Origin: an uncultured Bacillales bacterium
GTDB lineage: Bacteria; Bacillota_I; Bacilli_A; RFN20; CAG-826
Assembly: GCA_947302535.1 (NCBI GenBank)
Contig: CAMYVX010000001.1
Span: forward strand, 64,705 to 128,704
Direction: 5' to 3'
Length of the DNA: 64,000 bases
A model generated the notes under the pieces. The model ran no database searches. It was not told where the DNA came from and was given only the letters and a program-made list of their open reading frames with translations. Shown piece after piece: positions 1-16,279 of the stretch (the stretch's first letter is position 1; the number at the start of each line of letters is the position of its first letter). The position numbers and the translations under genes are program-made.

Positions 1-21
1 GATTTCAAGGAATCCAATGTT

Positions 22-216
22 ATGGAGCACCCAAACAAAATAGTGGAGTTTATTAATAATTATAACGATAGGATTAATTGCAAAAACAAAGAACAGTCAT
101 ATGTTATCTATAGATATTTTTCTACAGTAGTGTATGTGGCAATCGCATATGCCAATGGTCTAACAAGAGAAATCGATAACTATGAGAATGTATATTCGTT
201 TTTTAAAGGAAAATAA
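22..216 (+). CDS. hypothetical small protein (64 aa); possibly an immunity or orphan cassette partner of the downstream ORF
   Basis: Complete ORF with no recognisable domain. It is tightly followed by ORF 235..492 on the same strand. Confidence 0.3.
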   Translation: MEHPNKIVEFINNYNDRINCKNKEQSYVIYRYFSTVVYVAIAYANGLTREIDNYENVYSFFKGK

Positions 217-878: not shown

Positions 879-2552
879 TTACAAATTATATGAAATAGTC
901 AATGCGGGCTGCACACACGAACCATTGAATCCAACATAGTCGTTATTTAGTGTTCCGTTTTTATTGTTTCTAGAAGCACATGAACCATTGTTTTCATCTG
1001 TTTCTATTGGCGATCTTGTCCAACAATAACCAGTATGTGGTTTATCTACATCAGTAGAGTATTGCGCAGCATTTGCTCTAGCGTAATCTGTTGTTAAAAA
1101 TCTACGAGCAGGTGTAGCATTTGCTCCTGGGAATCCGTATTTGCTATCTGAATAATCTTTATAACTTAATAGTGTGACCTTATCGAAAGTATTTTCGCAT
1201 TCAAATCCGCTTTCTGGAGTAGCGGTACTAGAGGCGGAGTTATCTACTTCCATTGTTTGGATATTTTCTTTATTAAAGACAAATGTATTGTTATAGAAGC
1301 TATCATTTAGCCAGCTTCGTACTTCGCTATATTTGTAGTTATTTGGCATGATGGTTTTACCATCTATTTCTCTAGGACCACCGAAGTGGTAGCGTCTTAC
1401 TTCAATGAGTTTCTCGCTTAATAAGAAATAACTACTATCTTCGTTTTCAAGTACTCTCCAAGAGAGTGGTTCGACCTTAAACCAATATTCATTATCTTCA
1501 ATGATTTCATCGCCATTATCAAAATTACGGAGTGGTAAGGTTTCACCTGTTTCCATATCTTTTGCTATTTTAGCTTTTCTCTTCGCGTAGTATTCATGGT
1601 TGTAATAATAGTAACCATCAATCGTGGTTAATTCAGAGCTATTTAATTTATTAATTAAATCCTCGTCATTGACATTACTTTGTGGGTACATACCATATTT
1701 AACATATTTATTACTATCACCATAAATGGATGGTACTACACCGTGTTCTAAGTTCCACTCATGTTCTTCTTCGTCGTTCATGTAATGGGAATTAATGTAT
1801 GTAATATCATCTTTTAAAGTAAATGTATATTCTGTGTCTTCTGAGAGAAGATTATCTTCATTGTCATACCAACCAGTAAACAAATGATATTTCTTATCAG
1901 TAGGGATATTTTTAACTGTTACTTTGTTGATATCTTCTTCATCACCATAAACATAAATAGTACCTTTAGATTCATCTTCACTGTTGATGATTAGTCCATC
2001 AATCCATCTGGCAGTTAAGACTAAGTTACCAGTCATACCTTTTTTAATGGAGTCGACTCTATTGCCATCTTGGGAGAACCAACCCGCAAAGATATTAGCG
2101 AATTTCACTGGTCTAATTAATTCAAACTCACTATTGATGTTATATGAGGTTGGATATGTTTCTGTTGGGGCTTCTCCACCAAGGAAACGATATTCAATCG
2201 TGTACGTATCATAATCCCAAGTTGTTTTTAATGTCATATCACTTTTAACTGTATATGAATCAAATAACCAAGGCTTATCTTCATATAGCCATTCATCAAC
2301 ATGATATCCACGTTTAATTGGATCTTCTGGCTTAGTGATTTTATCACCTTCATTAACTGTGATATCAGCAATAGGTGTTCCACCTTGAGTATCAAATGAT
2401 ACAGTATAAGTAGTGGTAACAACATCTTCTGGCTCATCATCTTTACTGCCACCTGAACTCTTATTTGTGCCAGTAGCAAAAGCAATAATCCCGATGGTTA
2501 TTGATGTTATTAATAACGAAGATATAACAATAATTAGTTTTTTCTTATCCAT
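879..2552 (-). CDS. membrane-anchored surface protein with Listeria-Bacteroides (Flg_new-type) repeat domains and a Cys-containing C-terminal domain
   Basis: N-terminal transmembrane/signal segment LIIVISSLLITSITIGIIAF. Repeat segments such as YTVSFDTQGGTPIAD...GYHVDEWLY and YTIEYRFLGG...FAGWFSQDGNRV fit the F/Y-x-G-W consensus of Listeria-Bacteroides repeats. Confidence 0.65.
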   Translation of the reverse strand: MDKKKLIIVISSLLITSITIGIIAFATGTNKSSGGSKDDEPEDVVTTTYTVSFDTQGGTPIADITVNEGDKITKPEDPIKRGYHVDEWLYEDKPWLFDSYTVKSDMTLKTTWDYDTYTIEYRFLGGEAPTETYPTSYNINSEFELIRPVKFANIFAGWFSQDGNRVDSIKKGMTGNLVLTARWIDGLIINSEDESKGTIYVYGDEEDINKVTVKNIPTDKKYHLFTGWYDNEDNLLSEDTEYTFTLKDDITYINSHYMNDEEEHEWNLEHGVVPSIYGDSNKYVKYGMYPQSNVNDEDLINKLNSSELTTIDGYYYYNHEYYAKRKAKIAKDMETGETLPLRNFDNGDEIIEDNEYWFKVEPLSWRVLENEDSSYFLLSEKLIEVRRYHFGGPREIDGKTIMPNNYKYSEVRSWLNDSFYNNTFVFNKENIQTMEVDNSASSTATPESGFECENTFDKVTLLSYKDYSDSKYGFPGANATPARRFLTTDYARANAAQYSTDVDKPHTGYCWTRSPIETDENNGSCASRNNKNGTLNNDYVGFNGSCVQPALTISYNL

Positions 2553-2618: not shown

Positions 2619-3428
2619 TCAATAAATTTCAAGATAGTTACTTTTAAATGTTTTCTGTAGAACAACATCTCCTTTATATCTTGGATTAGAGATAACGCCA
2701 TCATACATTCTGGTTCTAAAGGTTTTAGAAAAGTTTAATGATGCAAAATCTCTTCTCATAAATCTATCAACATCATGCATCTTGATATTAGACACAAAGA
2801 GCATAAATACTGTCCTAATAGCGATAGCTTCTGGTTCATAGATGTAAATCTTAACAAAGCTATCTTTTCTAAATCCTAATATTGGTCTAACTCTTTTAGA
2901 GATATTTCCCGATTCCATTCTTTCATGGATACCAGAGGAAACACGAACCGACTGTTGACGAGATTCTTCCTGCGCTAGAGCGGAATACATGGTTAGCATG
3001 AAATCTAGTTTTGAATTGGAAGCATATAATTCATCAGTTTCAAAGTATACTTCAACACCCAGATTTCTTAATTCGTATATCGCTTGAAGAGTGTTTATCG
3101 TATTTCTACCAAACCTGGACATTTGCTTAACCAAGATAGGATCAATGAGTCCTTCTCAACATTTATCCATCATGTCTTGAAATTCTTCTCTTTTATCTAT
3201 GGATGTACCAGATTCAGTATCCGCAAATATTCCTACAAATTCCCGCGTGTTCTTCTTGAATATTCTTTTATATCTTCCAATTTGAGCATTAAAAGATTCT
3301 AGTTGTTCCTCACTATCAGTGGACACTCTAACATAGGCACAGACTCTTAATTTATGTTCTGGACTGGCTTCTTTTATTAATTCTTTTTCCAACTTCTTAG
3401 TCACTGGAATTATTGTCTTTTTTACCAT
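2619..3428 (-). pseudogene. large serine recombinase (resolvase/invertase family), disrupted by an in-frame stop and truncated C-terminally
   Basis: The N-terminal fragment (3156..3428) contains the catalytic-serine region YVRVSTDSEEQ. The second fragment (2619..3134) carries resolvase motifs (RFGRNT, LRNLGVEVYF) and the start of the recombinase domain. The two fragments are separated by a stop at about 3153. The combined length of about 260 aa falls well short of the 450-550 aa expected. Confidence 0.7.
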
Positions 3429-3597
3429 AGATACCTATAACAGGCATTTTGTATTTCTTTCTTAGAAGAATTATAGCTTCGGCCATCTCAAAAACATCGA
3501 TAACTCCCTTATCGCATAATTCTTCTAAGATATAAAGGCAGATGTTATATTCATATGGAAGTTTTTTATCTAGGATAACCTTGTCTTTATTGTGCAT
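3397..3597 (-). CDS. small hypothetical protein (66 aa), paralog A of a duplicated small ORF
   Basis: About 55% identical to ORF 8158..8394 (DKKLPYEYNICLYILEELCDKGVIDVFEMAEAIILLRKKY versus DKNQPYEYNIAIIILGELSNEGIIDIFDIAEALIKLRKLY). Its 3' end overlaps the recombinase start. Confidence 0.5.
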   Translation of the reverse strand: MHNKDKVILDKKLPYEYNICLYILEELCDKGVIDVFEMAEAIILLRKKYKMPVIGIYGKKDNNSSD

Positions 3598-3676
3598 AGT
3601 GGTGCCCGTTCCTTATGTGTCTATAAATCCATCAAAAAAGAGAGAAGTGCAAGTTGTTTTCAAGTATAATAAAAAC

Positions 3677-4894
3677 ATGAACGATAAATTAGATATTTAT
3701 TTTAGCAAAGTGTTTTGCCGCATGAGACATAAGACTCAACTCTTTAATGGTGCGGCTGATGATCATTATCACACTAGACTTCAGCACACAATCGAAGTTG
3801 AAGAGATTGCTTTAAAAATGGCTAAAAAGTTAATGTATGATAACTCTGCTATTAAATGCGACTTATCGAAAGTATCAAAAATAGCGCTCCTTCATGATAT
3901 CGGTCATACTCCTTTCGGTCATGCTGGTGAAAGAGCTTTGCATGAGATTATTTCTGGGCAATGCTGCAAAGAACATAATCTTCCAGATTTTAATAAATTA
4001 GGAGTTATTATTGGTTTCAAACATAATATTAATTCCGGACTTCTTTACATAGAAAGCGTCAAATTTGATAATGTCGATTTCGATATTCTTGACGGCATTG
4101 TTAGACACACAAAACTTTATTATGAAAATCAACAAGATTTGGATTACGGTTTTAAATACATTTTTCATGAACGCAAAGAATATTATGATAATAAAGGGCC
4201 GAAGACCTTAGAGGGTTTTATAGTTGCTTATGCAGATGAAATTGCCCAAATATGTTCTGATTATTTAGATATTTGTTTAGATAGCCAATCAAAAGGGCTT
4301 GTTCCAATTTCATTTAAATCCAGGCCGTTCACAAACCTTAGTGTTTCTTCTTCTGAAAAAAGAGTCGAGGCAAAAGCGGCTTGCGATTATTTGATTGATT
4401 TGTTTGCTGATTGTTTCAAACAAACCGATTCATTTTCGAAATTCAATGATAATGAATTCCTTAGTGTTTTAGATGAATTTGATGAGGCAAGAAAGAATTA
4501 TATTAAATCCAACAAATCCATCATTAAATATGATGATGAAAAATCAAAATTGATTAAATCTCTTTTTGCGTTTTATTACAATAATCCTGATGAAATTACA
4601 AACGATTTCTTTGATGACTTTGTATATAGATCTAGAAGAATAGAATATGAGACAAAGTTAGTTCTAAATGATGTTTCATTTCATACAGCAAACAAAAAGG
4701 AAACAATTAAATTTATTGAAAGAGTTTATTCAATTATTTCTGAACAAATAAGTGGCGAGCAACTAACTAATAACAACATTAAAGATTATAGAAACGTTTT
4801 TAAGTTGTATTTAAGAAGTTTGGCAGTTTTTATTTCAAAGATGACAGATAATTATGCGGAACACAAGTTTAGTAAAACACTTGACATTAAATAA
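3677..4894 (+). CDS. dGTPase-family (dNTP triphosphohydrolase) HD-domain phosphohydrolase
   Basis: RMRHKTQLF matches the dGTPase N-terminal motif (FRRLQxKTQV). The HD motifs are H..HTIEVEEIA and LLHDIGHTPFGH. I place the start at the internal ATG 3677, not at ORF start 3542, because the longer version would overlap the divergent small ORF. Confidence 0.8.
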   Translation: MNDKLDIYFSKVFCRMRHKTQLFNGAADDHYHTRLQHTIEVEEIALKMAKKLMYDNSAIKCDLSKVSKIALLHDIGHTPFGHAGERALHEIISGQCCKEHNLPDFNKLGVIIGFKHNINSGLLYIESVKFDNVDFDILDGIVRHTKLYYENQQDLDYGFKYIFHERKEYYDNKGPKTLEGFIVAYADEIAQICSDYLDICLDSQSKGLVPISFKSRPFTNLSVSSSEKRVEAKAACDYLIDLFADCFKQTDSFSKFNDNEFLSVLDEFDEARKNYIKSNKSIIKYDDEKSKLIKSLFAFYYNNPDEITNDFFDDFVYRSRRIEYETKLVLNDVSFHTANKKETIKFIERVYSIISEQISGEQLTNNNIKDYRNVFKLYLRSLAVFISKMTDNYAEHKFSKTLDIK

Positions 4895-4948
4895 CATTCA
4901 TCTATAATTTAGATATCAAAAGAGAAGAACTTAATTGTTCTGCAAATG

Positions 4949-4975
4949 AATCTCAGCAATGAGATTTTTTGTTTT
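4949..4975 (+). terminator. rho-independent terminator downstream of the HD gene
   Basis: AATCTCA-GCAA-TGAGATT hairpin followed by TTTTTTGTTTT. Confidence 0.55.
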
Positions 4976-5179
4976 CCATTTAGTTTGACCCATTAAAAAA
5001 TAAACCCCAATAAAACAGTATTTTACAGAATAATAAAAACAAACGGAGTTGAATGATTGCTTTATAAATGATATTTCGAGAATTTAAAGCAATAGATTTT
5101 AGTAGTAACTCTGGACAATTTCATTCCTATTGTAACTCCACTAATTGTCTTTATTATTGCCTAGCAATATACTTTATTT

Positions 5180-7888
5180 ATGAGAAGTTTGAAACTAGAT
5201 GCTAGACAATATATTAAAAACGCCAATGATAATATCGAAAGCAATATAGATTTATTATGTCCTAACCACATAGGTTTATGTGCTCAAAACATATTGGGCC
5301 AATCAAGAAACCTATTGGATGGATTCGCCCTTCTACAATATGGTATAGATTATCCAACTTCCAATATTGACAATGCCTTGAAATTGATTCAAGAGGCTCA
5401 AAAACATTTGACACAAAAAGGCAAGAATTATCGTTGCTTTGTAGACTTGTATTCCTTTTTGCAAGTTTCTGCCTCACATTATACTCAAAACATTTTTGAT
5501 TCTGAATCACTTTTACTGAAGTACTCCGACTATTTATTTGATATTAGAGAATCCGCTAAAACATTATTTGATATTGATATTTTAAGCAACCTCGAAGATT
5601 TTCCATTTTCAAACAAGGAAGATGAAGAATATTATCGTTCCATCAAAGATGTTCTATTAGAGGGCGATGGTGGTGAAAGCACCATCGATCACACATATTA
5701 TATAGAGAGAAGAGTAAGAAGAAGATTCGGTATATACGAATATGTTCTTTCGCCCGCAAACGACAAAAGAACTAAATTTGATCGTTTAACAGCTTTCTCA
5801 TTAACAAAAATCAATGATTCTCATTCTATTAAATGCCGATTTGCCAAAAAGAAATTGATTCACAACGGAATAACAATTCAAATCGTTAAAATTGTTGATT
5901 GGTCGATTTCAATAAGACCATGTGAAATTCAAAAGTTGGCGTTTATTCAGCATCTGGATTTCAAAATCAATAGAAATACATCTGGATATATGCCACTTAT
6001 GGATGCACTAACCGCAAATAATTGCAGTTTGTATGATTTTATTATTTCTCCTTCGTTTGAAAGCGATATTAATGAATTGCTTTTGGATAAAGATAATAAA
6101 ATACGTCGCTTTTTGGAAGAAACACGAAAAAACATTAACACAGATAAAGTTGGTAGTAAGACTTTAAAATATCTTCTCTTTATTTGCTTACATAACATCA
6201 TAAAATATCAAATCATTCGCGATCCAGAAAAACAATTGGGTTATTATAGTTTGAATAATAGGTGCTACGCCTTTGATTCTCACCCATTCTCATTATCACT
6301 CATAAATCATAATCCAAAGTTAAGCGATTTATTAGACTGTTTGCCAGAATACTGCACAAATGAAGAACTACTTAAAAGAACAATTGTTATAAATACAGAA
6401 GATAGAAAGATGCTTTATACACCAGTGAAAGAACTGGATAAGGCATTCAACACTCTTGATTATGCTAAGGAATTTAACAAAATGCTAGTTGAAAAAACAA
6501 AGGGCTTGGCAATTGAATTTTTCAACAACTATGCTTATATCAAGTCTTACGAAGAACATACTATTTCAATTTTAAATGCCTTAATTGCAAAAAGAAGGAT
6601 TGTTGACCCTGACTATGAATCGGTGGCACTGCCCTATATTTCAAGTCTTCGTGATAATGAAATAGATAATGAAAAGATTGATATTCTCAAAAAAGGCTTT
6701 ACAGATTCATCGGTGTTATTAATTAATGGTGCAGCTGGAACCGGCAAGACAACACTAATTAAACATTTTTCCAATATTTTTAAAGATAAGAAAATCTTAT
6801 ACCTATCATGCACTAACTCTTCGGTTCAAAATCTTCAAATTAAAGTTGGCAAATCAGATAATAGAACTTTCATGACTCTTGAGAGATTTAGAAAGAAGAT
6901 GAATACGGGTGGTAACTTTAATTATTCTATTTTAATCGTTGATGAATGTTCTATGGTGGAGAACGAGGCTTTTGATTTTGTTCTAAAGAACATGGATTTT
7001 GAAAAAATGTTGCTCGTAGGTGATGAAAGACAAATCGAATCTATCAAGTTCGGAAACTGGTTCGGTATCGTTAATTCATTGTTAGATTGCGGTTGCGAAT
7101 TAACGTTTACTCACAGGACCACCGACAAAAATTTACAAACTATTTGGGATGCCGTTAGAGAATTAGAACAGCAGGATAGACTTTATGAGAGAATAATTAA
7201 TGCCGGATATCATCATCAATTTGATAGTGATTTATTTATCCCTAAGAGTTCTGATGAAATAATACTTTGTTTAAATTATGATGGTCTTTACGGCATTAAC
7301 AACATTAATAGATATCTCCAAGAAAGCAATCCTAATAGGGCTGTTTCTTGGAAAGTTTGGACTTTTAAAGTGGGTGATAGGGTATTATTTAATGAAAGCT
7401 ATTACTTTAGAGATTATTTTTATAACAATCAAAAAGGCATAATTGAAAGCATCGAAGATGATGATTACTCGGTGACATTTGTTGTATATGTTAATAGTGA
7501 ACCAACCAATAATCACAGTTGTTCTTCTCATGTGCGTTGGATTAAAGAAGAAGATGAAAAAGATTATTACTCAATAAGAATTGATAAGGATGATGACGAT
7601 GACGAAGAAGATAATTCTACAAAAGTATTGGTTGTCCCATTTCAACTTGGGTATGCAATTTCAATTCACAAATCACAAGGTCTTGAGTATGATTCTGTGA
7701 AAGTCATTATGACCAAAGAAGTTGAAGAACAAGTAACACACAACGTGTTTTATACTGCGATTACAAGAGCAAAGAAATTTCTTTCTATTTATTGCGATAA
7801 AGAATCCTTGTCTAGGATTATCAATTCTTTTGAAAAGCAGACCACCAAAAACGACGCTGAAATAATAAAGCGAAAATATAATCTTTAA
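5180..7888 (+). CDS. SF1B RecD/Pif1-like DNA helicase (AAA_30 + UvrD_C_2 type) with an uncharacterised ~430-aa N-terminal region
   Basis: Walker A LLINGAAGTGKTT. Motif II ILIVDECSMV. Motif III LLVGDERQIES. Motif V AISIHKSQGLEYDSV. Motif VI YTAITRAKKFLSIY. The N-terminal 430 aa has no motif I recognise. There is an acidic insertion DKDDDDDEEDNS. Confidence 0.75.
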   Translation: MRSLKLDARQYIKNANDNIESNIDLLCPNHIGLCAQNILGQSRNLLDGFALLQYGIDYPTSNIDNALKLIQEAQKHLTQKGKNYRCFVDLYSFLQVSASHYTQNIFDSESLLLKYSDYLFDIRESAKTLFDIDILSNLEDFPFSNKEDEEYYRSIKDVLLEGDGGESTIDHTYYIERRVRRRFGIYEYVLSPANDKRTKFDRLTAFSLTKINDSHSIKCRFAKKKLIHNGITIQIVKIVDWSISIRPCEIQKLAFIQHLDFKINRNTSGYMPLMDALTANNCSLYDFIISPSFESDINELLLDKDNKIRRFLEETRKNINTDKVGSKTLKYLLFICLHNIIKYQIIRDPEKQLGYYSLNNRCYAFDSHPFSLSLINHNPKLSDLLDCLPEYCTNEELLKRTIVINTEDRKMLYTPVKELDKAFNTLDYAKEFNKMLVEKTKGLAIEFFNNYAYIKSYEEHTISILNALIAKRRIVDPDYESVALPYISSLRDNEIDNEKIDILKKGFTDSSVLLINGAAGTGKTTLIKHFSNIFKDKKILYLSCTNSSVQNLQIKVGKSDNRTFMTLERFRKKMNTGGNFNYSILIVDECSMVENEAFDFVLKNMDFEKMLLVGDERQIESIKFGNWFGIVNSLLDCGCELTFTHRTTDKNLQTIWDAVRELEQQDRLYERIINAGYHHQFDSDLFIPKSSDEIILCLNYDGLYGINNINRYLQESNPNRAVSWKVWTFKVGDRVLFNESYYFRDYFYNNQKGIIESIEDDDYSVTFVVYVNSEPTNNHSCSSHVRWIKEEDEKDYYSIRIDKDDDDDEEDNSTKVLVVPFQLGYAISIHKSQGLEYDSVKVIMTKEVEEQVTHNVFYTAITRAKKFLSIYCDKESLSRIINSFEKQTTKNDAEIIKRKYNL

Positions 7889-8157
7889 AAAACAGATAAA
7901 ACAACAACATAATTACAGCATTAATTCTTAAAAGAGGAATAGTGGCTAAAGGCAATCATAAAGTTTTAGCGACTTATGTTATTCACTGTAATAGTAAGAA
8001 CTCTAATAAATCTAAATTAGTTAAATCTATGTATCGTGTATATCATGAATCGCAAGGATTTAATTGGCCAAAGAGTTGGATATATGTATTTAGGATATGC
8101 ATTATATAGCGAGAAAAAACATAGGGATGTCAGATAGATTATAAAAACGACATATGG

Positions 8158-8394
8158 CTAGTGTTTGTCATAGAGTTTACTTATGGTTTGTAGCTGACAT
8201 AGACAAACACTCGCCGAGATATTTATAAATGGGAGATTATATAGTTTCCTTAATTTAATAAGAGCTTCCGCTATATCGAAAATATCTATTATTCCTTCAT
8301 TAGATAGTTCACCAAGTATGATTATGGCTATGTTGTATTCATATGGCTGATTCTTATCGATTACGAATCTATTTTTCTCTCTTTGCTTTCCCAT
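8158..8394 (-). CDS. small hypothetical protein (78 aa), paralog B of the duplicated small ORF
   Basis: Paralogous to 3397..3597. It is divergently oriented 61 bp from the STAND gene. No recombinase ORF lies downstream of it. Confidence 0.5.
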   Translation of the reverse strand: MGKQREKNRFVIDKNQPYEYNIAIIILGELSNEGIIDIFDIAEALIKLRKLYNLPFINISASVCLCQLQTISKLYDKH

Positions 8395-8455
8395 ATGTCT
8401 ATAAGTTGATCAAAAAGAAAAGTAATTCAAGTCATTTTGAAATATAATTATTAGC

Positions 8456-11400
8456 ATGAGCGAAGCGACCCAAAACGCACTTAAAGGTTATGGCTTCCAA
8501 ATGGAAGTTGCTATCTTATTTTGTTTTTTAATGGAGTTTTATCCAAATTCGTTTGATTATCTAAAATGCGAAATTGGAGATGAAGTGGAACATAATTTTG
8601 ATGACATTATTTTAAAGTCCAAAACCAAATCATATTTTATTCAAGTGAAAAATTATTCTTCAAAAACCGAAAAAGCATTTTACGAAGATGGTTACATCAT
8701 ATATTGTGGTCAAAAAATAAAATTGTCGAAAACAGACATAAATGTTTTTGTGTGTAATTCTATCTATTGTGATAACGAAAATATAAAAAAAGACTTTTAT
8801 GGTCTGCAAGCTAGTTATATTGAAGAAGGAAATGTCTACATCATATATTTATCGCCAGACCAAATTGAATCTTTTAAGAACGATAATTGTATTAACGATT
8901 TCAGAAGAAGACAATTAGATTCATTTTTTAGCGCCAAAATATTAAACTCAGAAAGAATAAATATAACCGATTTGCCTAAATTTGAATTGTATTGCAATGA
9001 GTTGGCTGAACAAACAATTAAAGTTAGAGAGTTTATTAAAAAACCGGACGAAAATGTTTTGTTTATTGTTGCGCCACCCGGTTATGGAAAAAGCCATTTT
9101 GCAAACGAGATTGAATTGCCTAAAAAGATTATTTATAGATTTTGGATTTCACAAGCAGATAATAATTTCACAGATAGACTAAAATATAGCCACTTCCTTG
9201 AACAGCTTTCTTATTCTGTAGATAATGGTGAACATCGTAAAAAGGATTTGAGGACCATTATAGAAACACTGTCCTTTAATGGACAAACACTTATTTTGGA
9301 TGGGCTTGATCATGTGTTTACGTATAATCAGCTAGAAGTCAATAAATACATAGATTTTATTAATGAATGTTCGAAGAAAAATACAATCAATCTTATTGTT
9401 TTAACAAGGCCATTAACCAATACATTTTATAAAAAGTATAAAGTGTTGTTCTTACAGAACTGGACAAAAGATGAATGTTCTGCATACTGCAGATATTTTA
9501 AGATAAACAGAGAAGGGCAAGAGAAAATTTATAATATTTCTAATGGCTATCCAATAATCGTACATTATTTATGCGAGGAATACCTTAAGAAAAAAGGCCG
9601 CCTTTCTATTGAAGGAAAAATCGATGGGTTAGATGATTATTATGAAAAAATTCTCTCAGTTGGCGGTTTTGATTCTAATTTAAACAGACTTAGATTAATT
9701 GCATCAATCACCCCTTTTCTTCATCTGAACGACCTGGAACTTTTGTATGACGGCTTTATTGCAAATCAACTTGCATCACTGATTGGTGATTTTCCTCATT
9801 TAGTTTCATGCAGTAATAAAAGAGTTTTCTTTTATCATGAATCTATTTACCAATACATATTATCTAACACAGATATTTCTTATTTTGATGAAATACACGA
9901 GAAAATTTTTAGCTTATTGCTTTCCGGCGATGTTACATTCATGTCGAGAATTTCTTTGTCTCTTTTCAGCAAAGGACAAGTGAAGAAACTGATTAAAAAA
10001 TATTCTAATTTAGATTTCTTCAAAAGTTTATTTGATAAAACGTTTGATTTTGAATCGATAAAAGTTTTTTATAGAAAAATAATGGATGAACTGAGCACTT
10101 TCAAAAGTGCCCCGATTGATATTTTTTGTATATATAATTTGGTATTAATACTTCTTCTTTTGAGTAGGAATTGCTATGAAGATAACAAAAATTTGGTTTT
10201 CCAATTATTTACACAATTAGAGAACAACAATAACAAATGGGAAAATTATGTGTTTAGTAGTGGGGCATTATTTAATGTTTTTTCAGAGATTAAATCTATA
10301 CCATTTTTAGAAAGAGACCCAACTGATATCTTTATTTTGAATGACGGAGATTTGCCTATTGAGGAAATGATTGAACAGGAGAACAAATATTTTAATGTTC
10401 TTAATTTTGATTATAGAAAACCAACATCTAATTATCTTGAACTGAATAAAACATATCCAGATTCAAATGTTTTGGCTGAATACTTTGTTTCTGGATACAT
10501 CCATGAGACAGATTCTATTTGCAAAACAATCATAAACGAGTACGAAAATGGATATAGCAACTATTATATTGCTCATAAAGTGTTAAATTCACTTAGCTTT
10601 ATAGATTATAAAACAGATACATTTCCTATTACTTTTGCATTAAGCAAGGCTCTTGATAGATTAAGATGTTTGGGAATTAAGCAAGGCATCGCTGAATATG
10701 ACACAATTTCTAGTTTTCTTCTGTCGCATAAAGATTTGAATACATTCGACATGTATAATGATTTGAATGGTTATATTAGATATTCAAACAAGATTGGTAG
10801 AAAACTTAATTTATGTGAAATAGCCCCTTATTTGTTGATGATGGATGCACACAAAGATCAAACTATCAGTTATGTTCCTGAAACTATGGCATTATATGTT
10901 AAGCATGGCGTTTTTACTATTGATGAATGTCGTCGATATCTTTCTAAAATATATTCTCTAATCGATAGTGGGAATAAATCGGCAGCTACAAATTTTATAA
11001 ATGAGTTAGGGCAAGAATATGTTGATGAGCTCATGTCTAATGGTTTTTTTGATACAGATTCGTTTTATATTTTTTACTCTAGTCTTAGCAAAAATATCCT
11101 TAACAAATTGCCATTTAATTATGTTTTGAATTACGCAATGGACTATTATTTGCGCTATCCTCAATCAAGAACTTATGTCACTAATGAAGAATTAGGAAAT
11201 ATCCTTAAATGTAAGCACATGAAAAAAATTAGACAGATGTTTTATGCGGATGGTATTGAAATAAAGTACACTTCATATGCAAAATCACAAAAGCGCGATT
11301 TTACAAAAAAACAGCTTGAAAAAGATTGGTATTTTAGAGATGGTTGTCTTGAACTATACAAAAAATATGATTTCTCTATAGAACAAATGGCTAGGTTATA

Positions 11401-11656
11401 CGATGGATGGGGTTTTAAATTATTTGATCCAAGTATCTTTTCTATCTTTGATGATGATATCGTGCGCTCTAATATAGAAAGAATTATTTTTATCGGCTTT
11501 ACCGAGAAAAAGGATATTTTCTATAAATATTTCCAATATAATGCAACACTTATCTACACGATTCCGATGTTTTATCATTTATATTGCAAAGATTTTAACT
11601 ATAAAAAAGCAGGTAAAATTTTTAAAAATTTCTTAGACATTATTCTTAGAATTTAA
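8456..11656 (+). CDS. STAND/NACHT-type P-loop NTPase (antiviral-STAND / bNACHT-like) with an N-terminal PD-(D/E)xK-like (DUF4297-like) nuclease domain
   Basis: Walker A FIVAPPGYGKSHF. NACHT-style Walker B LILDGLDHV. The N-terminal ~150 aa contains GYGFQMEVAI...FDDIIL...IQVK, consistent with a restriction-endonuclease-like fold. The C-terminal ~600 aa is a long helical region. Confidence 0.65.
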   Translation: MSEATQNALKGYGFQMEVAILFCFLMEFYPNSFDYLKCEIGDEVEHNFDDIILKSKTKSYFIQVKNYSSKTEKAFYEDGYIIYCGQKIKLSKTDINVFVCNSIYCDNENIKKDFYGLQASYIEEGNVYIIYLSPDQIESFKNDNCINDFRRRQLDSFFSAKILNSERINITDLPKFELYCNELAEQTIKVREFIKKPDENVLFIVAPPGYGKSHFANEIELPKKIIYRFWISQADNNFTDRLKYSHFLEQLSYSVDNGEHRKKDLRTIIETLSFNGQTLILDGLDHVFTYNQLEVNKYIDFINECSKKNTINLIVLTRPLTNTFYKKYKVLFLQNWTKDECSAYCRYFKINREGQEKIYNISNGYPIIVHYLCEEYLKKKGRLSIEGKIDGLDDYYEKILSVGGFDSNLNRLRLIASITPFLHLNDLELLYDGFIANQLASLIGDFPHLVSCSNKRVFFYHESIYQYILSNTDISYFDEIHEKIFSLLLSGDVTFMSRISLSLFSKGQVKKLIKKYSNLDFFKSLFDKTFDFESIKVFYRKIMDELSTFKSAPIDIFCIYNLVLILLLLSRNCYEDNKNLVFQLFTQLENNNNKWENYVFSSGALFNVFSEIKSIPFLERDPTDIFILNDGDLPIEEMIEQENKYFNVLNFDYRKPTSNYLELNKTYPDSNVLAEYFVSGYIHETDSICKTIINEYENGYSNYYIAHKVLNSLSFIDYKTDTFPITFALSKALDRLRCLGIKQGIAEYDTISSFLLSHKDLNTFDMYNDLNGYIRYSNKIGRKLNLCEIAPYLLMMDAHKDQTISYVPETMALYVKHGVFTIDECRRYLSKIYSLIDSGNKSAATNFINELGQEYVDELMSNGFFDTDSFYIFYSSLSKNILNKLPFNYVLNYAMDYYLRYPQSRTYVTNEELGNILKCKHMKKIRQMFYADGIEIKYTSYAKSQKRDFTKKQLEKDWYFRDGCLELYKKYDFSIEQMARLYDGWGFKLFDPSIFSIFDDDIVRSNIERIIFIGFTEKKDIFYKYFQYNATLIYTIPMFYHLYCKDFNYKKAGKIFKNFLDIILRI

Positions 11657-11888
11657 TTGCATTAATACAGTCGAAAACTTTTTTTGAGACAAAATCTTTG
11701 TATTTATTCAGTCGGTGAAAGACAAAAATGAAAAGATTAGTTTCTAATATCAATGCATATAATCAAAAGCCACACCCTTTTCTTAATTCAACTGTAACAG
11801 TATGACGTTTGACATACTAAAACCACAAATTGAAACTTAGTGTGACAAAAAAGTTGATTTTGGCACATCAATAAATTATCATTTAAGC

Positions 11889-13079
11889 ATGAAATACGAT
11901 TCTGTTGAAAAGCAATTTCATAAATTAACAAAAGAACAATTTGATGAATGGTTTGATAAAAGGTTTAATTCAAACACCACATATCATTTTGATATTGAAA
12001 TTGGCAAATCACCTGCTTTCTTTTGTTTTGATATCCCTTTATTCAATAAAATTCTTGAGATTCAGCAAAAGAATGACCAATTAAATAATTTATTTAATAA
12101 TTTGCCTCTTATTGCAAGCCAACAATATATTAGAAATTCTCTTGTTGTTGATGTTAAAAAAACAAACGAAATAGAAGGAGTGTTTTCTTCTAGAAAAGAG
12201 ATCTTTGAGTTAACTGAAGATCTTAAAAAAAGGAAATCAAATAAGATAGGATCTATTGTTAACAAATATCTATTACTGCTCAACGGAAAAAGCGAAAAGA
12301 AAATTTCCAGTTGTGAAGATATCAGAAAGATTTATAACGAATTATTTATATATGGTGATGAATCTTTGATTGACCCAGATAAATGGCCTGATGGCAAGCT
12401 GTTTAGAAAGGATTATGTTGGAGTTTATGATGCCGGCAATGATGAACCTATCCATAATGGCATAGTGCCTGAAGAAAAAATAATTAAGTATTTAGATGTT
12501 GCGGTTTCAATTTTGAATAACCAAGACATCAATGCATTTGTCCGTATATCTTTGTTTCATTATATTTTTGAATACGCCCATCCATTTTATGATGGTAACG
12601 GAAGAATAGGTAGATATTTAGTATCGATGTTTGTTAAAAACAAAATAAGTAGTATCTTTGCTTTTAGAATTTCATCAGGAATCAATAACTATAAGAACAA
12701 GTATTATAAAGCATTCAAAGACACAGAGGGTGTTTTGAATAAAGGCGACTTAACTCTATTTGTTTATGAATTCCTGGATATCTTGGATAAAACCTATGAT
12801 GATTGTATTGATTACGCAAAATCTAAAAAGAAAGAGCTTGAGGACAAATATAATGACCTTAAAGCTAAAATGCCTAGATTAAGTAAAAACGAAGACAATG
12901 TTTTGTATGTGTTAACGCAGGCTACTATTTTTTCCGATTTTGGTATAACCATTCAAGAGATACAATCAACATTAAAAATCAGTGTGAGAACTATTAGACG
13001 TTGTATTAATACGTTTAAAGAAAAGTCCATTTTAACTGAAAAAAGGCTTTCTAAAAAAATGCTGTATTCCTTGGTTTAG
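11889..13079 (+). CDS. Fic/Doc-family protein (AMPylation-type Fic domain)
   Basis: Canonical Fic motif HPFYDGNGRIGR. The C-terminal region is wHTH-like. Confidence 0.8.
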   Translation: MKYDSVEKQFHKLTKEQFDEWFDKRFNSNTTYHFDIEIGKSPAFFCFDIPLFNKILEIQQKNDQLNNLFNNLPLIASQQYIRNSLVVDVKKTNEIEGVFSSRKEIFELTEDLKKRKSNKIGSIVNKYLLLLNGKSEKKISSCEDIRKIYNELFIYGDESLIDPDKWPDGKLFRKDYVGVYDAGNDEPIHNGIVPEEKIIKYLDVAVSILNNQDINAFVRISLFHYIFEYAHPFYDGNGRIGRYLVSMFVKNKISSIFAFRISSGINNYKNKYYKAFKDTEGVLNKGDLTLFVYEFLDILDKTYDDCIDYAKSKKKELEDKYNDLKAKMPRLSKNEDNVLYVLTQATIFSDFGITIQEIQSTLKISVRTIRRCINTFKEKSILTEKRLSKKMLYSLV

Positions 13080-13122: not shown

Positions 13123-13911
13123 TTAATACACATATTCAAATGAAGCATATGGATGTTCTATATCCATCAATACTTTATTTTTCTTTTTAAGTGTATATCT
13201 TATCTTCACACATGGACACTCATGTATAAATCTAGTCATATTACCTTTAGTGGGTGCTTTTAGAGCATGACCGTTAAAGTCATCTATATTTATATCTAAT
13301 ATGTATTTACCTTTTTTGATAATAATATGATTTTGACTTATAAGTTTTGCTTTAGCAAAGTTATAAGTACCAAATCTATATTCTTTATTATTATGTTCAA
13401 TTAGACAGGTTACCCCTGTTATCTTAAATAATGCTAATGGTATCGTGGCTACCGCTAGTGTGATACTAGCTTCTTTATTAATAGCATTTAGCCATAGATA
13501 ATTCTTAGGAAAGTTTCTCCCTTTATCACCTTCTATGTATCCATTACCATTAGCGAAGTCTATTTCATTACCATTAATAGTGATACTTCCACTTAACTCA
13601 TGATACATAGAATATATTTGATGCTTACATTCAATAGGTAGGTACCTATAGTAAGACATAATATCTTTCCTATTCTTTAATAGTGGCCCATATTTAATCT
13701 CACCAGTAATTATCAAATCATCTTGATGAACATTAAAAGATATACCTTTAAAAGATATTTCTATTTGTGATAAATCTTTTAATAAATACGATCCATCATT
13801 GGCGATGATTTGTATCATCTTGCCTTCATTACTAATAGAATCAATTATTGCGACCATATCACCATTAATTGATTGATGCTTATAGTAAATACCAAAGAAT
13901 TTGTTTTTCAT
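13123..13911 (-). CDS. hypothetical protein (about 262 aa from the internal Met; ORF extends to 13989)
   Basis: Long ORF with coding-like composition. The motif YIEGDKGRNFPKNYLWLNA weakly resembles tocopherol-cyclase/CrtC-like proteins. I could not reach a confident family assignment. Confidence 0.45.
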   Translation of the reverse strand: MKNKFFGIYYKHQSINGDMVAIIDSISNEGKMIQIIANDGSYLLKDLSQIEISFKGISFNVHQDDLIITGEIKYGPLLKNRKDIMSYYRYLPIECKHQIYSMYHELSGSITINGNEIDFANGNGYIEGDKGRNFPKNYLWLNAINKEASITLAVATIPLALFKITGVTCLIEHNNKEYRFGTYNFAKAKLISQNHIIIKKGKYILDINIDDFNGHALKAPTKGNMTRFIHECPCVKIRYTLKKKNKVLMDIEHPYASFEYVY

Positions 13912-14048
13912 AATAATCAGTTTAAATGATTTGAAAACATCAATAAAGAAGAAACACGAATAATCTAATGGTGAACGATTGAAACACAAGATATTTGCTA
14001 TTATTTTTTTGTTCGTATATAATACGATAGCAAAAAGAGAGTATTATT

Positions 14049-15257
14049 ATGGTTATTTCAGTAGCAGGTACAGGATATGTTGGATTAAGTAACGCGATTA
14101 TATTAGCCCAACACAATAAAGTTTATGCCGTAGATGTAGTTCCATCTAAGATTGATTTAATTAACAACAAAAAGTCTCCAATCATCGATAAAGAAATTGA
14201 AGAATATTTGGCAACTAAAAAGTTAGACCTTACTGCTACATTAGATGGTGATAAAGCCTATAAAGATAGCGAACTAATCATCATTGCCACTCCTACAAAC
14301 TATGATAGCGCTACTAACAAATTTGACACATCCTCTGTTGAATCAGTTATTGAACAAGTGAAAAGAGTTAATCCTAATGCTTGGATTATTGTTAAATCAA
14401 CAGTGGGTGTTGGTTTTACCAAATATGCTAGAGAAAAACATAATTATGATAAAATCCTTTTCTCTCCTGAATTCTTGAGAGAAGGGAAAGCATTATATGA
14501 TAATCTTTACCCATCAAGAATAGTGGTGGGTGTTCCTGAAAAGAAAGAACCATATTTATCTAAAGCCAAAGAATTCGCAACTTTGTTACAACAAGGTGCG
14601 ATTAAAGAAAATATAGAAACCCATATCTTAGGATGTACAGAAGCAGAAGCTGTTAAGTTATTCGCTAATACATATCTTGCCTTAAGAGTGGCTTATTTCA
14701 ATGAATTAGATACATTTGCTCAATTAAAGGGTTTAGATACTTTGGATATCATTAAAGGTGTATCTGCCGATCCACGTATTGGAGACTTCTATAACAATCC
14801 ATCCTTTGGTTATGGTGGATATTGTTTACCTAAAGACACCAAAGAGTTAAAAGCTAACTTCGAAGATGTTCCAGAGAACTTAATATCCGCGATTGTGGAA
14901 TCTAATAGAACAAGAAAAGACTTTATTGCTGATAGAGTACTTCAACTTGCTGGATATAAGAACGATGGTAAAGATAATGTTACTGTTGGTATCTATAGAT
15001 TAACCATGAAATCCGGTAGTGATAACTTTAGACAATCGTCTATCCAAGGCGTTATGAAGAGATTACAAGCTAAAGGTGTAAAGATTGTTATCTATGAACC
15101 AACACTTAAAGATGAAGAATTCTTTAACTCTAAAGTTATTAAAGACTTTAATGAATTTAAGAAAGTATCTAAAGTCATTATTGCTAATAGATACGATGCA
15201 TCTTTGGATGATGTTAAAGATAAAGTCTATACAAGAGATTTATTAAGAAGAGATTAA
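14049..15257 (+). CDS. ugd: UDP-glucose 6-dehydrogenase
   Basis: N-terminal Rossmann motif [12 protein letters not shown]. Catalytic Cys motif GGYCLPKD. Lies adjacent to a UDP-glucuronate epimerase. Confidence 0.9.
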
Positions 15258-15259
15258 TT

Positions 15260-16279
15260 ATGAAGATATTGGTTACAGGCGCTGCTGGCTTTATAGGTTC
15301 TTTTCTTTGCAAAAGACTTTTAAGTAGCACTCAAGATGAAATTATAGGTATAGATAATGTTAATGATTATTACGCTGTTTCTTTAAAAGAAGCACGCTTA
15401 GAAATGCTTAAACCATTTAATAAGTTTAAGTTCATCAAAGGCGATATTTCAGATAAGCCATTCATTGATAAAATGTTTGATGAATATAGATTTGATATAG
15501 TGGTTAATTTGGCTGCTCAAGCAGGTGTTAGATATTCAATTGATCATCCAGATGTCTATATCCAATCTAATATTATTGGCTTCTATAACATCTTAGAAGC
15601 CTGTAGATACCATCCTGTTAAGCATCTGGTTTATGCTTCAAGTTCATCTGTTTATGGTGGTAACACCAAAGTTCCATTTAGCACCGATGATAAAGTAGAT
15701 AATCCAGTGAGTTTATATGCTGCGACAAAGAAATCTAATGAATTATTAGCCCACGCTTATAGTAAACTATACAATATTCCTTCAACAGGATTGCGTTTCT
15801 TTACTGTTTATGGACCAATGGGTAGACCCGATATGGCCTACTTTAGCTTTACTAATAAACTCATTAAAGGTGAAACTATTGAGATATTTAACTACGGTAA
15901 TTGTAAAAGAGACTTTACCTATGTAGATGATATAGTTGAGGGCATTATTAAAGTTATGAATAAAGCCCCAACTAAAAAAGATGGAGAGGATGGATTACCA
16001 ATCCCTCCATATAAGGTTTATAACATAGGTAATAACAACCCTGAAAATCTTTTAGATTTTGTACAAATATTATCTGAAGAACTCGTAAGAGCGGGTGTGC
16101 TTCCAAAAGACTATGATTTTGAGGCGCATAAAAAGTTAGTACCAATGCAAAAAGGCGATGTACCTATTACATATGCCGATACAAGTGATTTAGAAAGGGA
16201 TTTTGGCTATAAACCATCTACAAGTCTTAGAGATGGATTAAGACGATTTGCTCAGTGGTATAAACAATACTACAAATGA
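15260..16279 (+). CDS. NAD-dependent epimerase, probable UDP-glucuronate 4-epimerase
   Basis: KILVTGAAGFIGS. The SDR Ser motif YASSSSVYG and the YxxxK motif YAATKKSNE. Positioned immediately after ugd. Confidence 0.8.
   Translation: MKILVTGAAGFIGSFLCKRLLSSTQDEIIGIDNVNDYYAVSLKEARLEMLKPFNKFKFIKGDISDKPFIDKMFDEYRFDIVVNLAAQAGVRYSIDHPDVYIQSNIIGFYNILEACRYHPVKHLVYASSSSVYGGNTKVPFSTDDKVDNPVSLYAATKKSNELLAHAYSKLYNIPSTGLRFFTVYGPMGRPDMAYFSFTNKLIKGETIEIFNYGNCKRDFTYVDDIVEGIIKVMNKAPTKKDGEDGLPIPPYKVYNIGNNNPENLLDFVQILSEELVRAGVLPKDYDFEAHKKLVPMQKGDVPITYADTSDLERDFGYKPSTSLRDGLRRFAQWYKQYYK

Follow-up and report, generated by a model that had tools for sequence, protein, structure and literature searches.

The Ccr serine recombinases mobilise tandem defence cassettes beside SCCmec (Hossain et al., 2024, PMC11470126), and small serine recombinases mark defence loci (Andersen et al., 2026, PMC13552941). 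Known defence genes include single-gene systems such as the anti-phage dGTPase, an HD-domain dGTP-triphosphohydrolase found in a defence island (Tal et al., 2022), and SoFic, the Fic protein of Shewanella oneidensis (Millman et al., 2022), as well as the Avs proteins, among them SeAvs3 (PDB 8dgc) and SeAvs7 (Lee et al., Nature 2026, PMC13581612), which combine a Cap4-type nuclease effector with a STAND NTPase; Lee et al. (2026) distinguished 589 STAND clades, 198 of them defence-associated, and 684 sensor clusters. Here we describe a stretch of 64,000 nucleotides from an uncultured Bacillales bacterium (contig CAMYVX010000001.1, positions 64,705 to 128,704; hereafter the window), in which positions 2619-13079 hold the remains of a large serine recombinase and four genes encoding a dGTPase-family HD protein, an SF1B helicase, a 1066-aa STAND protein and a Fic protein. 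A preliminary description, made from the letters of the DNA, had proposed that this block is an accessory, horizontally acquired island of defence-type genes. The map of open reading frames (ORFs) contains all five features at the positions given there, and comparison with related loci (designated by L numbers) supports an accessory, horizontally assembled island. We regard it as a real anti-phage defence island that is ordinary in kind; what goes beyond the routine is an uncatalogued, rare family of Cap4-STAND proteins and a recurrent module of recombinase and small ORF (sORF) in a poorly known gut lineage.

Recombinase modules and the assembly of the island

The picture that we consider probable is that of a mosaic defence island of independent cassettes, brought in as recombinase-sORF modules. 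The window holds two of these. Module 1 comprises a broken recombinase, sORF1 (66 aa; 3397-3597, minus strand), whose 3' end overlaps the recombinase start, and the dGTPase-like and helicase genes, and ends in the 3' remnant of a family-2 glycosyltransferase (GT2) gene. Module 2 starts with sORF2 (78 aa; 8158-8394, minus strand), which has no recombinase behind it, followed by the STAND and Fic genes. The two sORFs are paralogues (53% identical, E 3e-20) and each faces the first cargo gene of its module, sORF1 being divergent from the dGTPase gene and sORF2 from the STAND gene. Neither sORF was mentioned in the preliminary description, nor were the GT2 remnant and the continuation of the island beyond the left end of the window. 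Library scans of Pfam, PADLOC, NCBIfam and PHROGs gave no family match for sORF1.

The inactivated large serine recombinase that had been placed at the head of the run is indeed a pseudogene of the TndX/XisF/Ccr type (2619-3428, minus strand). Its Resolvase domain is split over two ORFs, 2619-3134 and 3156-3428, followed by the start of a Recombinase domain (Pfam), and the two ORFs correspond, in one frame and with 93% identity, to residues 1-269 of intact 559-aa relatives (tblastn with the L026 recombinase as query). We call it a pseudogene because its frame is interrupted by a stop near 3135-3155 and the last 290 aa (residues 270-559) are deleted, leaving a copy that lacks the full large-serine-recombinase architecture of Resolvase, Recombinase and C-terminal zinc-ribbon/coiled-coil parts over ~450-600 aa. 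Intact copies of 548-560 aa, 88-96% identical, occur in L026, L027 and L029-L033. The intact recombinase scores 78 bits for XisF, 64 for CcrB (cut-off 900) and 45 for CcrC (cut-off 900), all far below the cut-offs, and is by these scores best classed as a generic large serine recombinase, not a Ccr.

The layout of module 1 is recurrent. The cluster of sORF1 at 90% identity or more has 267 members, and one cluster-mate, P0077, with 95% identity to sORF1, has entries in 129 blocks of our collection. In 10 of the 10 contexts listed, a P0077-type sORF precedes or overlaps the start of a recombinase of ~559 aa (intact in seven, degraded in three), with polysaccharide genes on the recombinase side and varied defence genes opposite, the cargo including SIR2, AbiH, AbiEii, Abi_2, AAA_15/21, a ThsA-type Macro domain, RelA/SpoT and HigB. 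Homology between related modules stops, and cargo begins, in a conserved divergent promoter/boundary region (3598-3672 in the window): its left limit lies 38-75 nt upstream of the sORF ATG in 12 loci (alignment A5 and blastn), and the boundary motif upstream of sORF2 is conserved as well. L026 and L027 are 97.6% identical over the 8 kb that extend rightwards from a point 74 nt before the sORF, and share no relationship on the other side of that point. Extra copies of the sORF, or 5' fragments of it with the promoter, lie directly upstream of cargo in L027, L029, L030, L032, L088 (a fragment of the sORF2 type), L020 and the window, and tandem modules are found in L030 and L088.

These observations invite comparison with SCC/SCCmec elements, with which the modules share a large serine recombinase at a fixed neighbourhood, tandem defence cassettes, some of them without a recombinase, and target-gene 3' remnants at their borders. 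They differ from SCC/SCCmec in that the recombinase is not a Ccr and is always preceded by the 66-aa ORF, in that a capsule locus takes the place of rlmH, and in that integration-site repeats are not defined. Tandem stacking by Ccr recombinases beside SCCmec is the closest known parallel, the loci marked by small serine recombinases being looser. Integrons are recognised by the tyrosine recombinase IntI, attI and cassettes bounded by attC; this combination is lacking here, the recombinase being of the serine type and the one repeated 3' element, of ~65 nt, following just two cassettes of the window and being missing from most arrays. The resemblance is one of layout only, with a recombinase divergent from co-oriented cargo. 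In the assembly that we propose, modules of the form recombinase and 66-aa sORF in one direction, cargo in the other, would have carried the cassettes in and been stacked in tandem beside the 3' ends of polysaccharide genes. Redundant recombinases would then have decayed, module 1 keeping a truncated copy and module 2 the sORF only.

It is also possible, though in our judgement less likely, that the mosaic arose by homologous or illegitimate recombination between anchors (Ugd, epimerase, GT2 3' ends, sORF plus promoter) in hypervariable capsule loci, in which case the recombinase-sORF unit would be a passenger or a selfish element resembling an insertion sequence, and the defence function of the cargo would be unchanged. 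The flanking of cargo by Ugd, epimerase and GT2 fragments in L001 and L002 would fit such exchanges, as would the variable end points of the sORF fragments and the clustering, in the GT2 remnant, of the positions at which the window differs from L005/L006, a pattern suggestive of gene conversion; L029 and L032, moreover, have only the ~2.3-kb recombinase module in common. A mere passenger does not readily account for a sORF-recombinase unit at the polysaccharide/defence junction in every one of the 10 contexts or for sORF copies repeatedly lying directly upstream of cargo, and related serine recombinases do mobilise such cassettes (PMC11470126). Insertion by the recombinase would remain our preferred explanation of the mosaic; decay of tandem elements may, like homologous recombination between the anchors, account for it instead.

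We think it improbable that the block is instead the remnant of a prophage or of a decayed TndX-type integrative/conjugative transposon whose replication or transfer, and not the defence of the host, was served by the HD, helicase and Fic proteins. The closest solved relative of the intact recombinase is 3g13, a clostridial 'putative conjugative transposon recombinase' (2.8e-29), and the helicase, Fic and HD proteins have matches in PHROGs (phrog_325 'Dda-like helicase', 1e-51; phrog_5978, 1e-42; phrog_21998, 2e-21), but the block and its immediate surroundings contain no genes for conjugation, replication initiation, capsid or tail, and no relatives of the recombinase were found in IMG/VR. 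The cargo differs in every context, consisting mostly of Abi, SIR2, AAA_15/21, TIR and toxin genes, and homologues of the helicase lie inside type I restriction-modification (R-M) operons.

Some further features of the modules may be noted. In both modules a TATAAT box precedes the ATG of the first cargo gene by only ~7-10 nt (window 3664-3680 and 8441-8458). This spacing suggests that transcription from the divergent boundary region yields transcripts with a very short leader or none. An extra segment of ~480 nt lies directly upstream of the sORF in L027 (7452-7926), L029 (1912-2396) and L032 (1081-1592); a diverged second copy of the sORF promoter, together with the first 32-50 nt of the sORF, delimits it, and its ~380-nt interior is conserved among the three. 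A 1075-aa protein beside the sORF in L024, considered as a STAND homologue, proved not to be homologous and was rejected.

Exchange of single genes between relatives

Alignment to related genomes shows that the block is variable and not core genome. In two relatives, L020 and L021, in which Ugd is at least 90% identical in protein and 82-84% identical in DNA, ordinary sugar-synthesis genes lie upstream of Ugd. Their defence-type genes are different ones at other positions: L020 has an SLFN-like helicase with an AAA_21 pair, and L021 has a GIY-YIG insertion, AAA_15 and a Dam-type methylase. L088 carries a 98%-identical helicase in another gene order (Ugd, TIR protein, epimerase, sORF fragment, helicase, GT2 remnant, HNH, further sORF fragments, FRG). 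We conclude that the block is variable because of these differences upstream of Ugd and in the position of the helicase.

The preliminary description had treated the genes as one run; the units of exchange are instead single genes, that is, independent cassettes, since the shared DNA starts immediately before individual start codons, 9 nt before the ATG of the helicase gene and 17 nt before that of the STAND gene. The DNA that the window shares with L088 (5171-8141, 96.6%) ends with the GT2 remnant, and that shared with L001 runs to 69 nt after the STAND stop codon. In L088 and L089 the sORF fragment abuts the helicase gene with no dGTPase segment (~3644-5170) in between; this segment is therefore either an insertion exactly at the boundary or has been deleted in L088.

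The GT2 remnant that closes module 1 (7930-8141, plus strand) comprises ~65 codons, the last of them degraded. It shares 85-86% identity with the 3' end of an intact GT2 gene at the left border of the island (L006, 19890-20099), and its translation aligns with the GT2 C-terminus. In L088 the remnant accompanies the helicase, and L001 has two copies of it. A 'conserved non-coding element' at 7989-8142, considered as an RNA or att site, was rejected as being this gene remnant. Between the window (7900-8157) and L005 (3854-4109) or L006 (4398-4653) identity falls to 91.5% at the remnant, compared with 99.8-100% elsewhere, which suggests either gene conversion with another GT2 3' copy or a local hypervariable spot.

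The STAND protein

In the PADLOC models, three of the four cargo genes found a match (dGTPase, PDC-S53 and SoFic); the fourth, the 1066-aa protein encoded at 8456-11656 (plus strand), is Avs-like by structure. It had been described as a STAND NTPase with an N-terminal PD-(D/E)xK-like domain and a Walker B motif DGLDH, and this assignment is borne out by conservation in 47 homologues. The motifs PPGYGKS (207-213), LILDGLDH (279-286, with DGLDH at 282-286), the sensor-1 motif TRP (317-319), GYP (364-366) and the MHD-like H461/D462 of the winged helix are invariant or at least 90% conserved, as expected of the STAND superfamily. In the N-terminal domain, residues E39, D49/D50 and Q63-x-K65 are invariant or nearly so, giving a signature GYxYQ...E...FDD...QxK, and the conserved acidic and QxK/ExK residues are those of a PD-(D/E)xK fold of the Cap4/LmuA type. 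Cap4_nuclease (PF14130/DUF4297) is the sole recurrent family among the homologues (8 of 26, best E 0.0056); the window protein itself reaches 15.6 bits, below the gathering threshold of 26.2 (E 0.02). The 1066-aa protein has no match in Pfam, PADLOC, NCBIfam, PHROGs or the PDB sequences. NACHT (PF05729) leaves it unmatched and is weakly matched by 17 of 44 homologues (best E 9.4e-5); other weak matches among the homologues are to AAA_22, NPHP3_N and NB-ARC, and some database records of homologues bear the title 'NACHT domain-containing protein'.

The AlphaFold model (predicted local distance difference test, pLDDT, 86.4; predicted template-modelling score 0.74) has the tripartite Avs layout, with a predicted nuclease effector (aa 1-190; 8456-9025), an NTPase module (aa ~195-470; 9039-9865) delimited by motifs and Foldseek, and a C-terminal region (aa ~471-1066; 9866-11656) that is modelled as helical throughout, with pLDDT mostly 80-97, and is predicted to be the ligand sensor. 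The best Foldseek matches in the PDB are Avs3 (7.5e-11), Apaf-1, Avs4, CED-4 and animal and plant NLRs. The conserved motifs, together with these model-based matches, identify the protein as an Avs-like STAND whose effector is a nuclease of the Cap4 type. With ~2000 residues in its solved chain, SeAvs3 is far longer. In the window protein the nuclease is fused to a STAND NTPase, unlike Cap4, LmuA and HamA, whose partners in CBASS, Lamassu and Hachiman are a SAVED domain, SMC or a helicase.

That the protein could instead be a TnsC/TniB-like or ORC/Cdc6-like ATPase acting in the transposition or replication of a mobile element, and not an immune sensor, strikes us as very unlikely. TnsC, ORC/Cdc6 and MCM-loader ATPases do appear in the Foldseek results, at E 3e-4 to 3e-3, and one homologue weakly matches TniB; the best folds, however, are those just named, the STAND-specific GxP and MHD-like motifs, the Cap4-type nuclease and the ~600-aa helical C-terminus point the same way, and a transposase partner is conserved in none of the 13 STAND loci.

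The family is rare and architecturally fixed. A database search returned 51 homologues, nearly all of 1053-1124 aa and unnamed; WP_099628596.1, WP_216822415.1, KGI44845.1 and WP_212691200.1 are named relatives. In an exhaustive profile search, 1.84 billion representatives yielded 482 matches at E<=1e-3, 179 of them at E<=1e-30, and the full-length ones (~80) are colinear, with 1055-1110 aa; the family is thus small and self-contained, and differs from the known Avs proteins in having no PADLOC Avs or Pfam match. It may well be among the STAND clades of Lee et al. (2026). Its hosts (Methanobrevibacter, Oscillospiraceae, Psychrobacillus, Peribacillus, Pedobacter, Chryseobacterium, Bacteroidales and Cloacimonadota) show the patchy distribution typical of horizontally moving defence genes. 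Over the 13 loci, in which association with defence genes was counted without formal statistics, a 75%-identical homologue (L001) adjoins a CBASS operon and GmrSD, a 43%-identical one (L002) lies among DUF2971, AAA_14 and HEPN genes within a polysaccharide locus, and Gabija is among the neighbours recorded across eleven named genomes, with GajA in up to three loci. This context supports a role in defence.

Neither the L001 nor the L002 homologue has a Fic neighbour, and a two-gene system of STAND and Fic was rejected on this ground. A distant Fic protein (24% identical) is encoded at L013 6882-7865, ~2 kb downstream of the STAND homologue of a Cloacimonadota metagenome-assembled genome (MAG), which is probably a coincidence because the closer STAND homologues are without one. 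A second very large ORF (932-1096 aa) lies immediately upstream of or near the STAND gene in L011 (6705-9995), L012 (4212-7475), L013 (8450-11671) and L019 (4157-6955); these may encode paralogues or partner proteins.

The HD, helicase and Fic proteins

The HD protein is encoded at 3542-4894 (plus strand), and its true start is probably M46, at 3677, where the hidden Markov model alignments begin. It belongs to the dGTPase family, as described at the outset, with matches to Pfam HD (1.2e-12) and, nearly end to end, to the PADLOC dGTPase model (7e-32, 109 bits, residues 46-446), and its metal-binding motif, H...HDIGH (residue 118)...D (DEIA at 232), is intact. It shares with the anti-phage dGTPase (NF041026) the HD-domain triphosphohydrolase family, a single-gene organisation and a place in a defence island; it is far from that validated protein and equally far from the housekeeping Dgt equivalogs. 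From its sequence we predict a divergent branch of the dGTPase family acting in nucleotide-depletion defence.

The helicase (902 aa; 5180-7888, plus strand) is of the SF1B, RecD/Pif1 type, its core matching AAA_30 and UvrD_C_2, with GAAGTGKT at residue 517 and DECS at 588. A perfect sigma-70 consensus, TTGACA-16-TATAAT (4881-4908, plus strand), lies upstream of it and fits a transcription unit of its own. The protein matches the PADLOC candidate family PDC-S53 over its full length (E 6e-249, 827 bits, residues 9-900 of 902 against model positions 5-894 of 900), and homologues of it occur in defence contexts. The family is uniform, its 73 homologues all having ~900-920 aa with full coverage. 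The N-terminal region of ~430 aa, which could not be assigned to a family when first described, has no Pfam family and no PDB sequence match (residues 1-430); it is conserved among the homologues, with R43, H100, E187, K199, R246-x-C248-E249, H377 and D383 invariant. A search of JGI metagenome contigs gave one distant locus only, and a literature search yielded no publication mentioning PDC-S53. A two-gene system of dGTPase and helicase was considered and rejected, since homologues of the helicase occur without a dGTPase neighbour and the order differs in L088. In L083-L087 (five places listed, each from a different sample), 34%-identical helicase homologues are located inside a type I R-M operon of the order hsdR, 70 aa, DUF6261, 41 aa, helicase, hsdS, 195 aa, hsdM.

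The last gene of the run (11889-13079, plus strand) does encode a Fic protein, with an intact motif HPFYDGNGRIGR at residue 231 that fits HxFx(D/E)GNGRxxR, a Pfam Fic match (1.5e-11) and a PADLOC SoFic match (2e-37, residues 58-386). With SoFic it has in common the Fic motif, an N-terminal inhibitory helix motif (TNEIEG at 92) and a C-terminal region resembling a helix-turn-helix (HTH), with weak HTH matches; it is otherwise distant.

The notion that these are housekeeping genes (Dgt, RecD2 and a regulatory ATPase) adjacent by chance can be regarded as effectively refuted. Beyond a family-level resemblance to dGTP triphosphohydrolases and RecD, which is real, the NCBIfam equivalog scores are all 3- to 10-fold below their cut-offs: the HD protein reaches 105 bits against 393 for the best housekeeping Dgt equivalog (Dgt cut-offs span 342-511), and the helicase 131 against 500 for RecD2 (TIGR01448) and 110 against 310 for RecD. 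In relatives, moreover, this position lacks the genes, and those for the helicase and the STAND protein turn up at unrelated positions and in unrelated phyla.

Proposed mode of action and implications

The mode of action that we propose for the four proteins would differ from one to the next. The HD enzyme would hydrolyse dNTPs and so starve phage replication, and the helicase would presumably act on phage DNA or replication intermediates via its conserved N-terminal domain. By comparison with Avs3/Avs4 and Avs7 (PMC13581612), the C-terminal sensor of the STAND protein would bind a phage-derived ligand and provoke ATP-dependent oligomerisation, uniting the Cap4-type nuclease domains so that DNA is cut and the infection aborted. 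The SoFic-like Fic protein would AMPylate a target.

Several observations weigh against this picture of how the island was assembled and what it does. The break points of the sORF fragments vary (nt 32-50, 76-78, 105 and 171) and no precise att site or target duplication was found, both of which speak against a clean site-specific mechanism; homologous or illegitimate recombination could have produced the mosaic with no recombinase activity. All same-strain-level contigs (L005-L008, 99.8-100% identical) carry the island, so that presence and absence are seen only between more distant relatives (82-84% in Ugd DNA). The AT-richness that had been taken as a sign of foreign origin holds for total GC, which is 0.305 in the island, 0.325 in the capsule genes and 0.362 in the genes at 36-64 kb, but not for codon usage: GC at third codon positions is 0.266, 0.264 and 0.279, respectively. 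The difference in GC must thus lie in codon positions 1 and 2 and reflects amino-acid composition, not a foreign codon signature. As to function, the HD protein is below all NCBIfam Dgt and antiphage-dGTPase cut-offs (78.8 bits against 400 for NF041026, 93 against 152 for TIGR01353) and the Fic protein reaches 47.9 bits against 550 for NCBIfam SoFic; since these curated cut-offs are missed, both are distant relatives of the validated proteins and not equivalogs. No PADLOC Avs model (Avs1-5) matches the 1066-aa protein, mad8 being matched weakly by 15 of 44 homologues, and PDC-S53 is a computational candidate family only. What the analysis establishes is the identity of the genes, their domain folds and conserved catalytic motifs, the variability between relatives and the recurrent layout of recombinase, sORF and cargo; anti-phage activity, triggers, oligomerisation and insertion by the recombinase, as opposed to homologous recombination, are inferred.

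Gut Bacilli of a little-studied group thus interleave defence genes with capsule-biosynthesis genes, repeatedly headed by one highly conserved module of a serine recombinase and a small ORF, and metagenomes could be searched for more defence genes with this module as bait. The 1066-aa protein represents a compact and rare candidate family of pattern-recognition receptors, which is tractable for the phage-gene trigger screens now applied to Avs. A bolder reading, which we hold to be doubtful, joins the two: the serine recombinase and the 66-aa ORF would be a dedicated cassette-acquisition platform in the capsule loci of gut Bacilli, and the 1066-aa protein an undescribed Avs family with a new trigger. 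Such a platform would stack promoter-proximal, co-oriented single-gene cassettes with the newest adjoining the recombinase, making it a serine-recombinase functional analogue of the integron; the idea that the newest cassette lies next to the recombinase comes from the position of the dGTPase segment exactly between the boundary and the helicase. If this were true, variation of the receptor (capsule) would be physically coupled to intracellular immunity, and the locus raises the question of whether surface-receptor variation and intracellular immunity are exchanged together.

Extent of the island and neighbouring genes

The island had been placed between a surface-protein gene and the capsule locus. 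The surface-protein gene (879-2552, minus strand; Listeria-Bacteroides repeats, Pfam Flg_new 6e-18, and DUF6273, 2.7e-15) in fact lies inside the island and is not its border, because defence genes continue to its left in L006. The same locus is present at 99.8-100% identity in public metagenome contigs (L005-L008), from which the genes left of the window can be read, in order, as an AbiLi-like ATPase with a 256-aa partner, an Abi_2-like protein, a pair of radical-SAM and 398-aa proteins resembling PDC-M30 (PDC-M30A/B), a SIR2_2 protein and glycosyltransferases. The island reaches ~10 kb left of the window and measures ~20 kb, with polysaccharide genes on both sides, so that it is embedded in a capsule-type locus and does not lie beside one; the 2.6-13.1 kb block is its right-hand half. 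Of the AbiL-like (PDC-M12-like) pair, the window contains the 3' end of the partner gene (1-216, plus strand), which starts to the left, positions 22-216 being the last 64 of its 256 codons. The full gene and the upstream 382-aa ATPase are visible in L006 (99.8% identical), with PADLOC matches to PDC-M12B (2.2e-9) and AbiLi (1.7e-36), respectively.

Self-BLAST of the island against the window revealed no DNA repeats, and an Rfam scan of 1-16.5 kb gave sub-threshold chance matches only, none of them at conserved non-coding stretches. A ~65-nt element with two direct half-sites (..ACAGTAGGAATAA.. / TACAGTCTGTGAAAGACA) is present twice on the plus strand, 3' of the AbiL-like cassette (763-826) and directly after the STAND stop codon (11665-11724); its half-sites read ACAGTCG/GAAA ... 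TTCAGTCGGTGAAAGACA, and an 18-mer of it occurs twice in the window, against 0.01 expected. Further copies lie in L001, at 13212-13276 and at ~16790, where the element also follows the STAND homologue, and in L025 at ~1073, after an unrelated gene. Several cargo genes that are not related to each other are thus followed directly by the element, which most other arrays lack; it could mark the end of a cassette, bind a protein or be a repeat associated with terminators. A 15-mer of it has 47 matches in IMG/VR, which by a rough estimate, not a computation, is no more than chance and therefore uninformative.

To the right, a tocopherol-cyclase-like ORF (13123-13989, minus strand; Pfam Tocopherol_cycl 5.8e-8) lies between the Fic gene and Ugd. 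It is the last variable gene before the conserved Ugd-epimerase pair (14049-16279) and is absent upstream of Ugd in L020 and L021. The bacterium is an uncultured, low-GC gut member of the Bacilli; the names of related proteins in the databases refer to MAGs of 'Bacilli bacterium' and 'Candidatus Izemoplasmatales'. In relatives, defence-type genes are also inserted between the otherwise adjacent Ugd and epimerase genes, namely a CAP12/PCTIR TIR protein in L088 (7844-8659) and, in L021 (11261-13382), a trio of a 444-aa, a 109-aa and a GIY-YIG protein, making this a second recurrent insertion point in the capsule locus.

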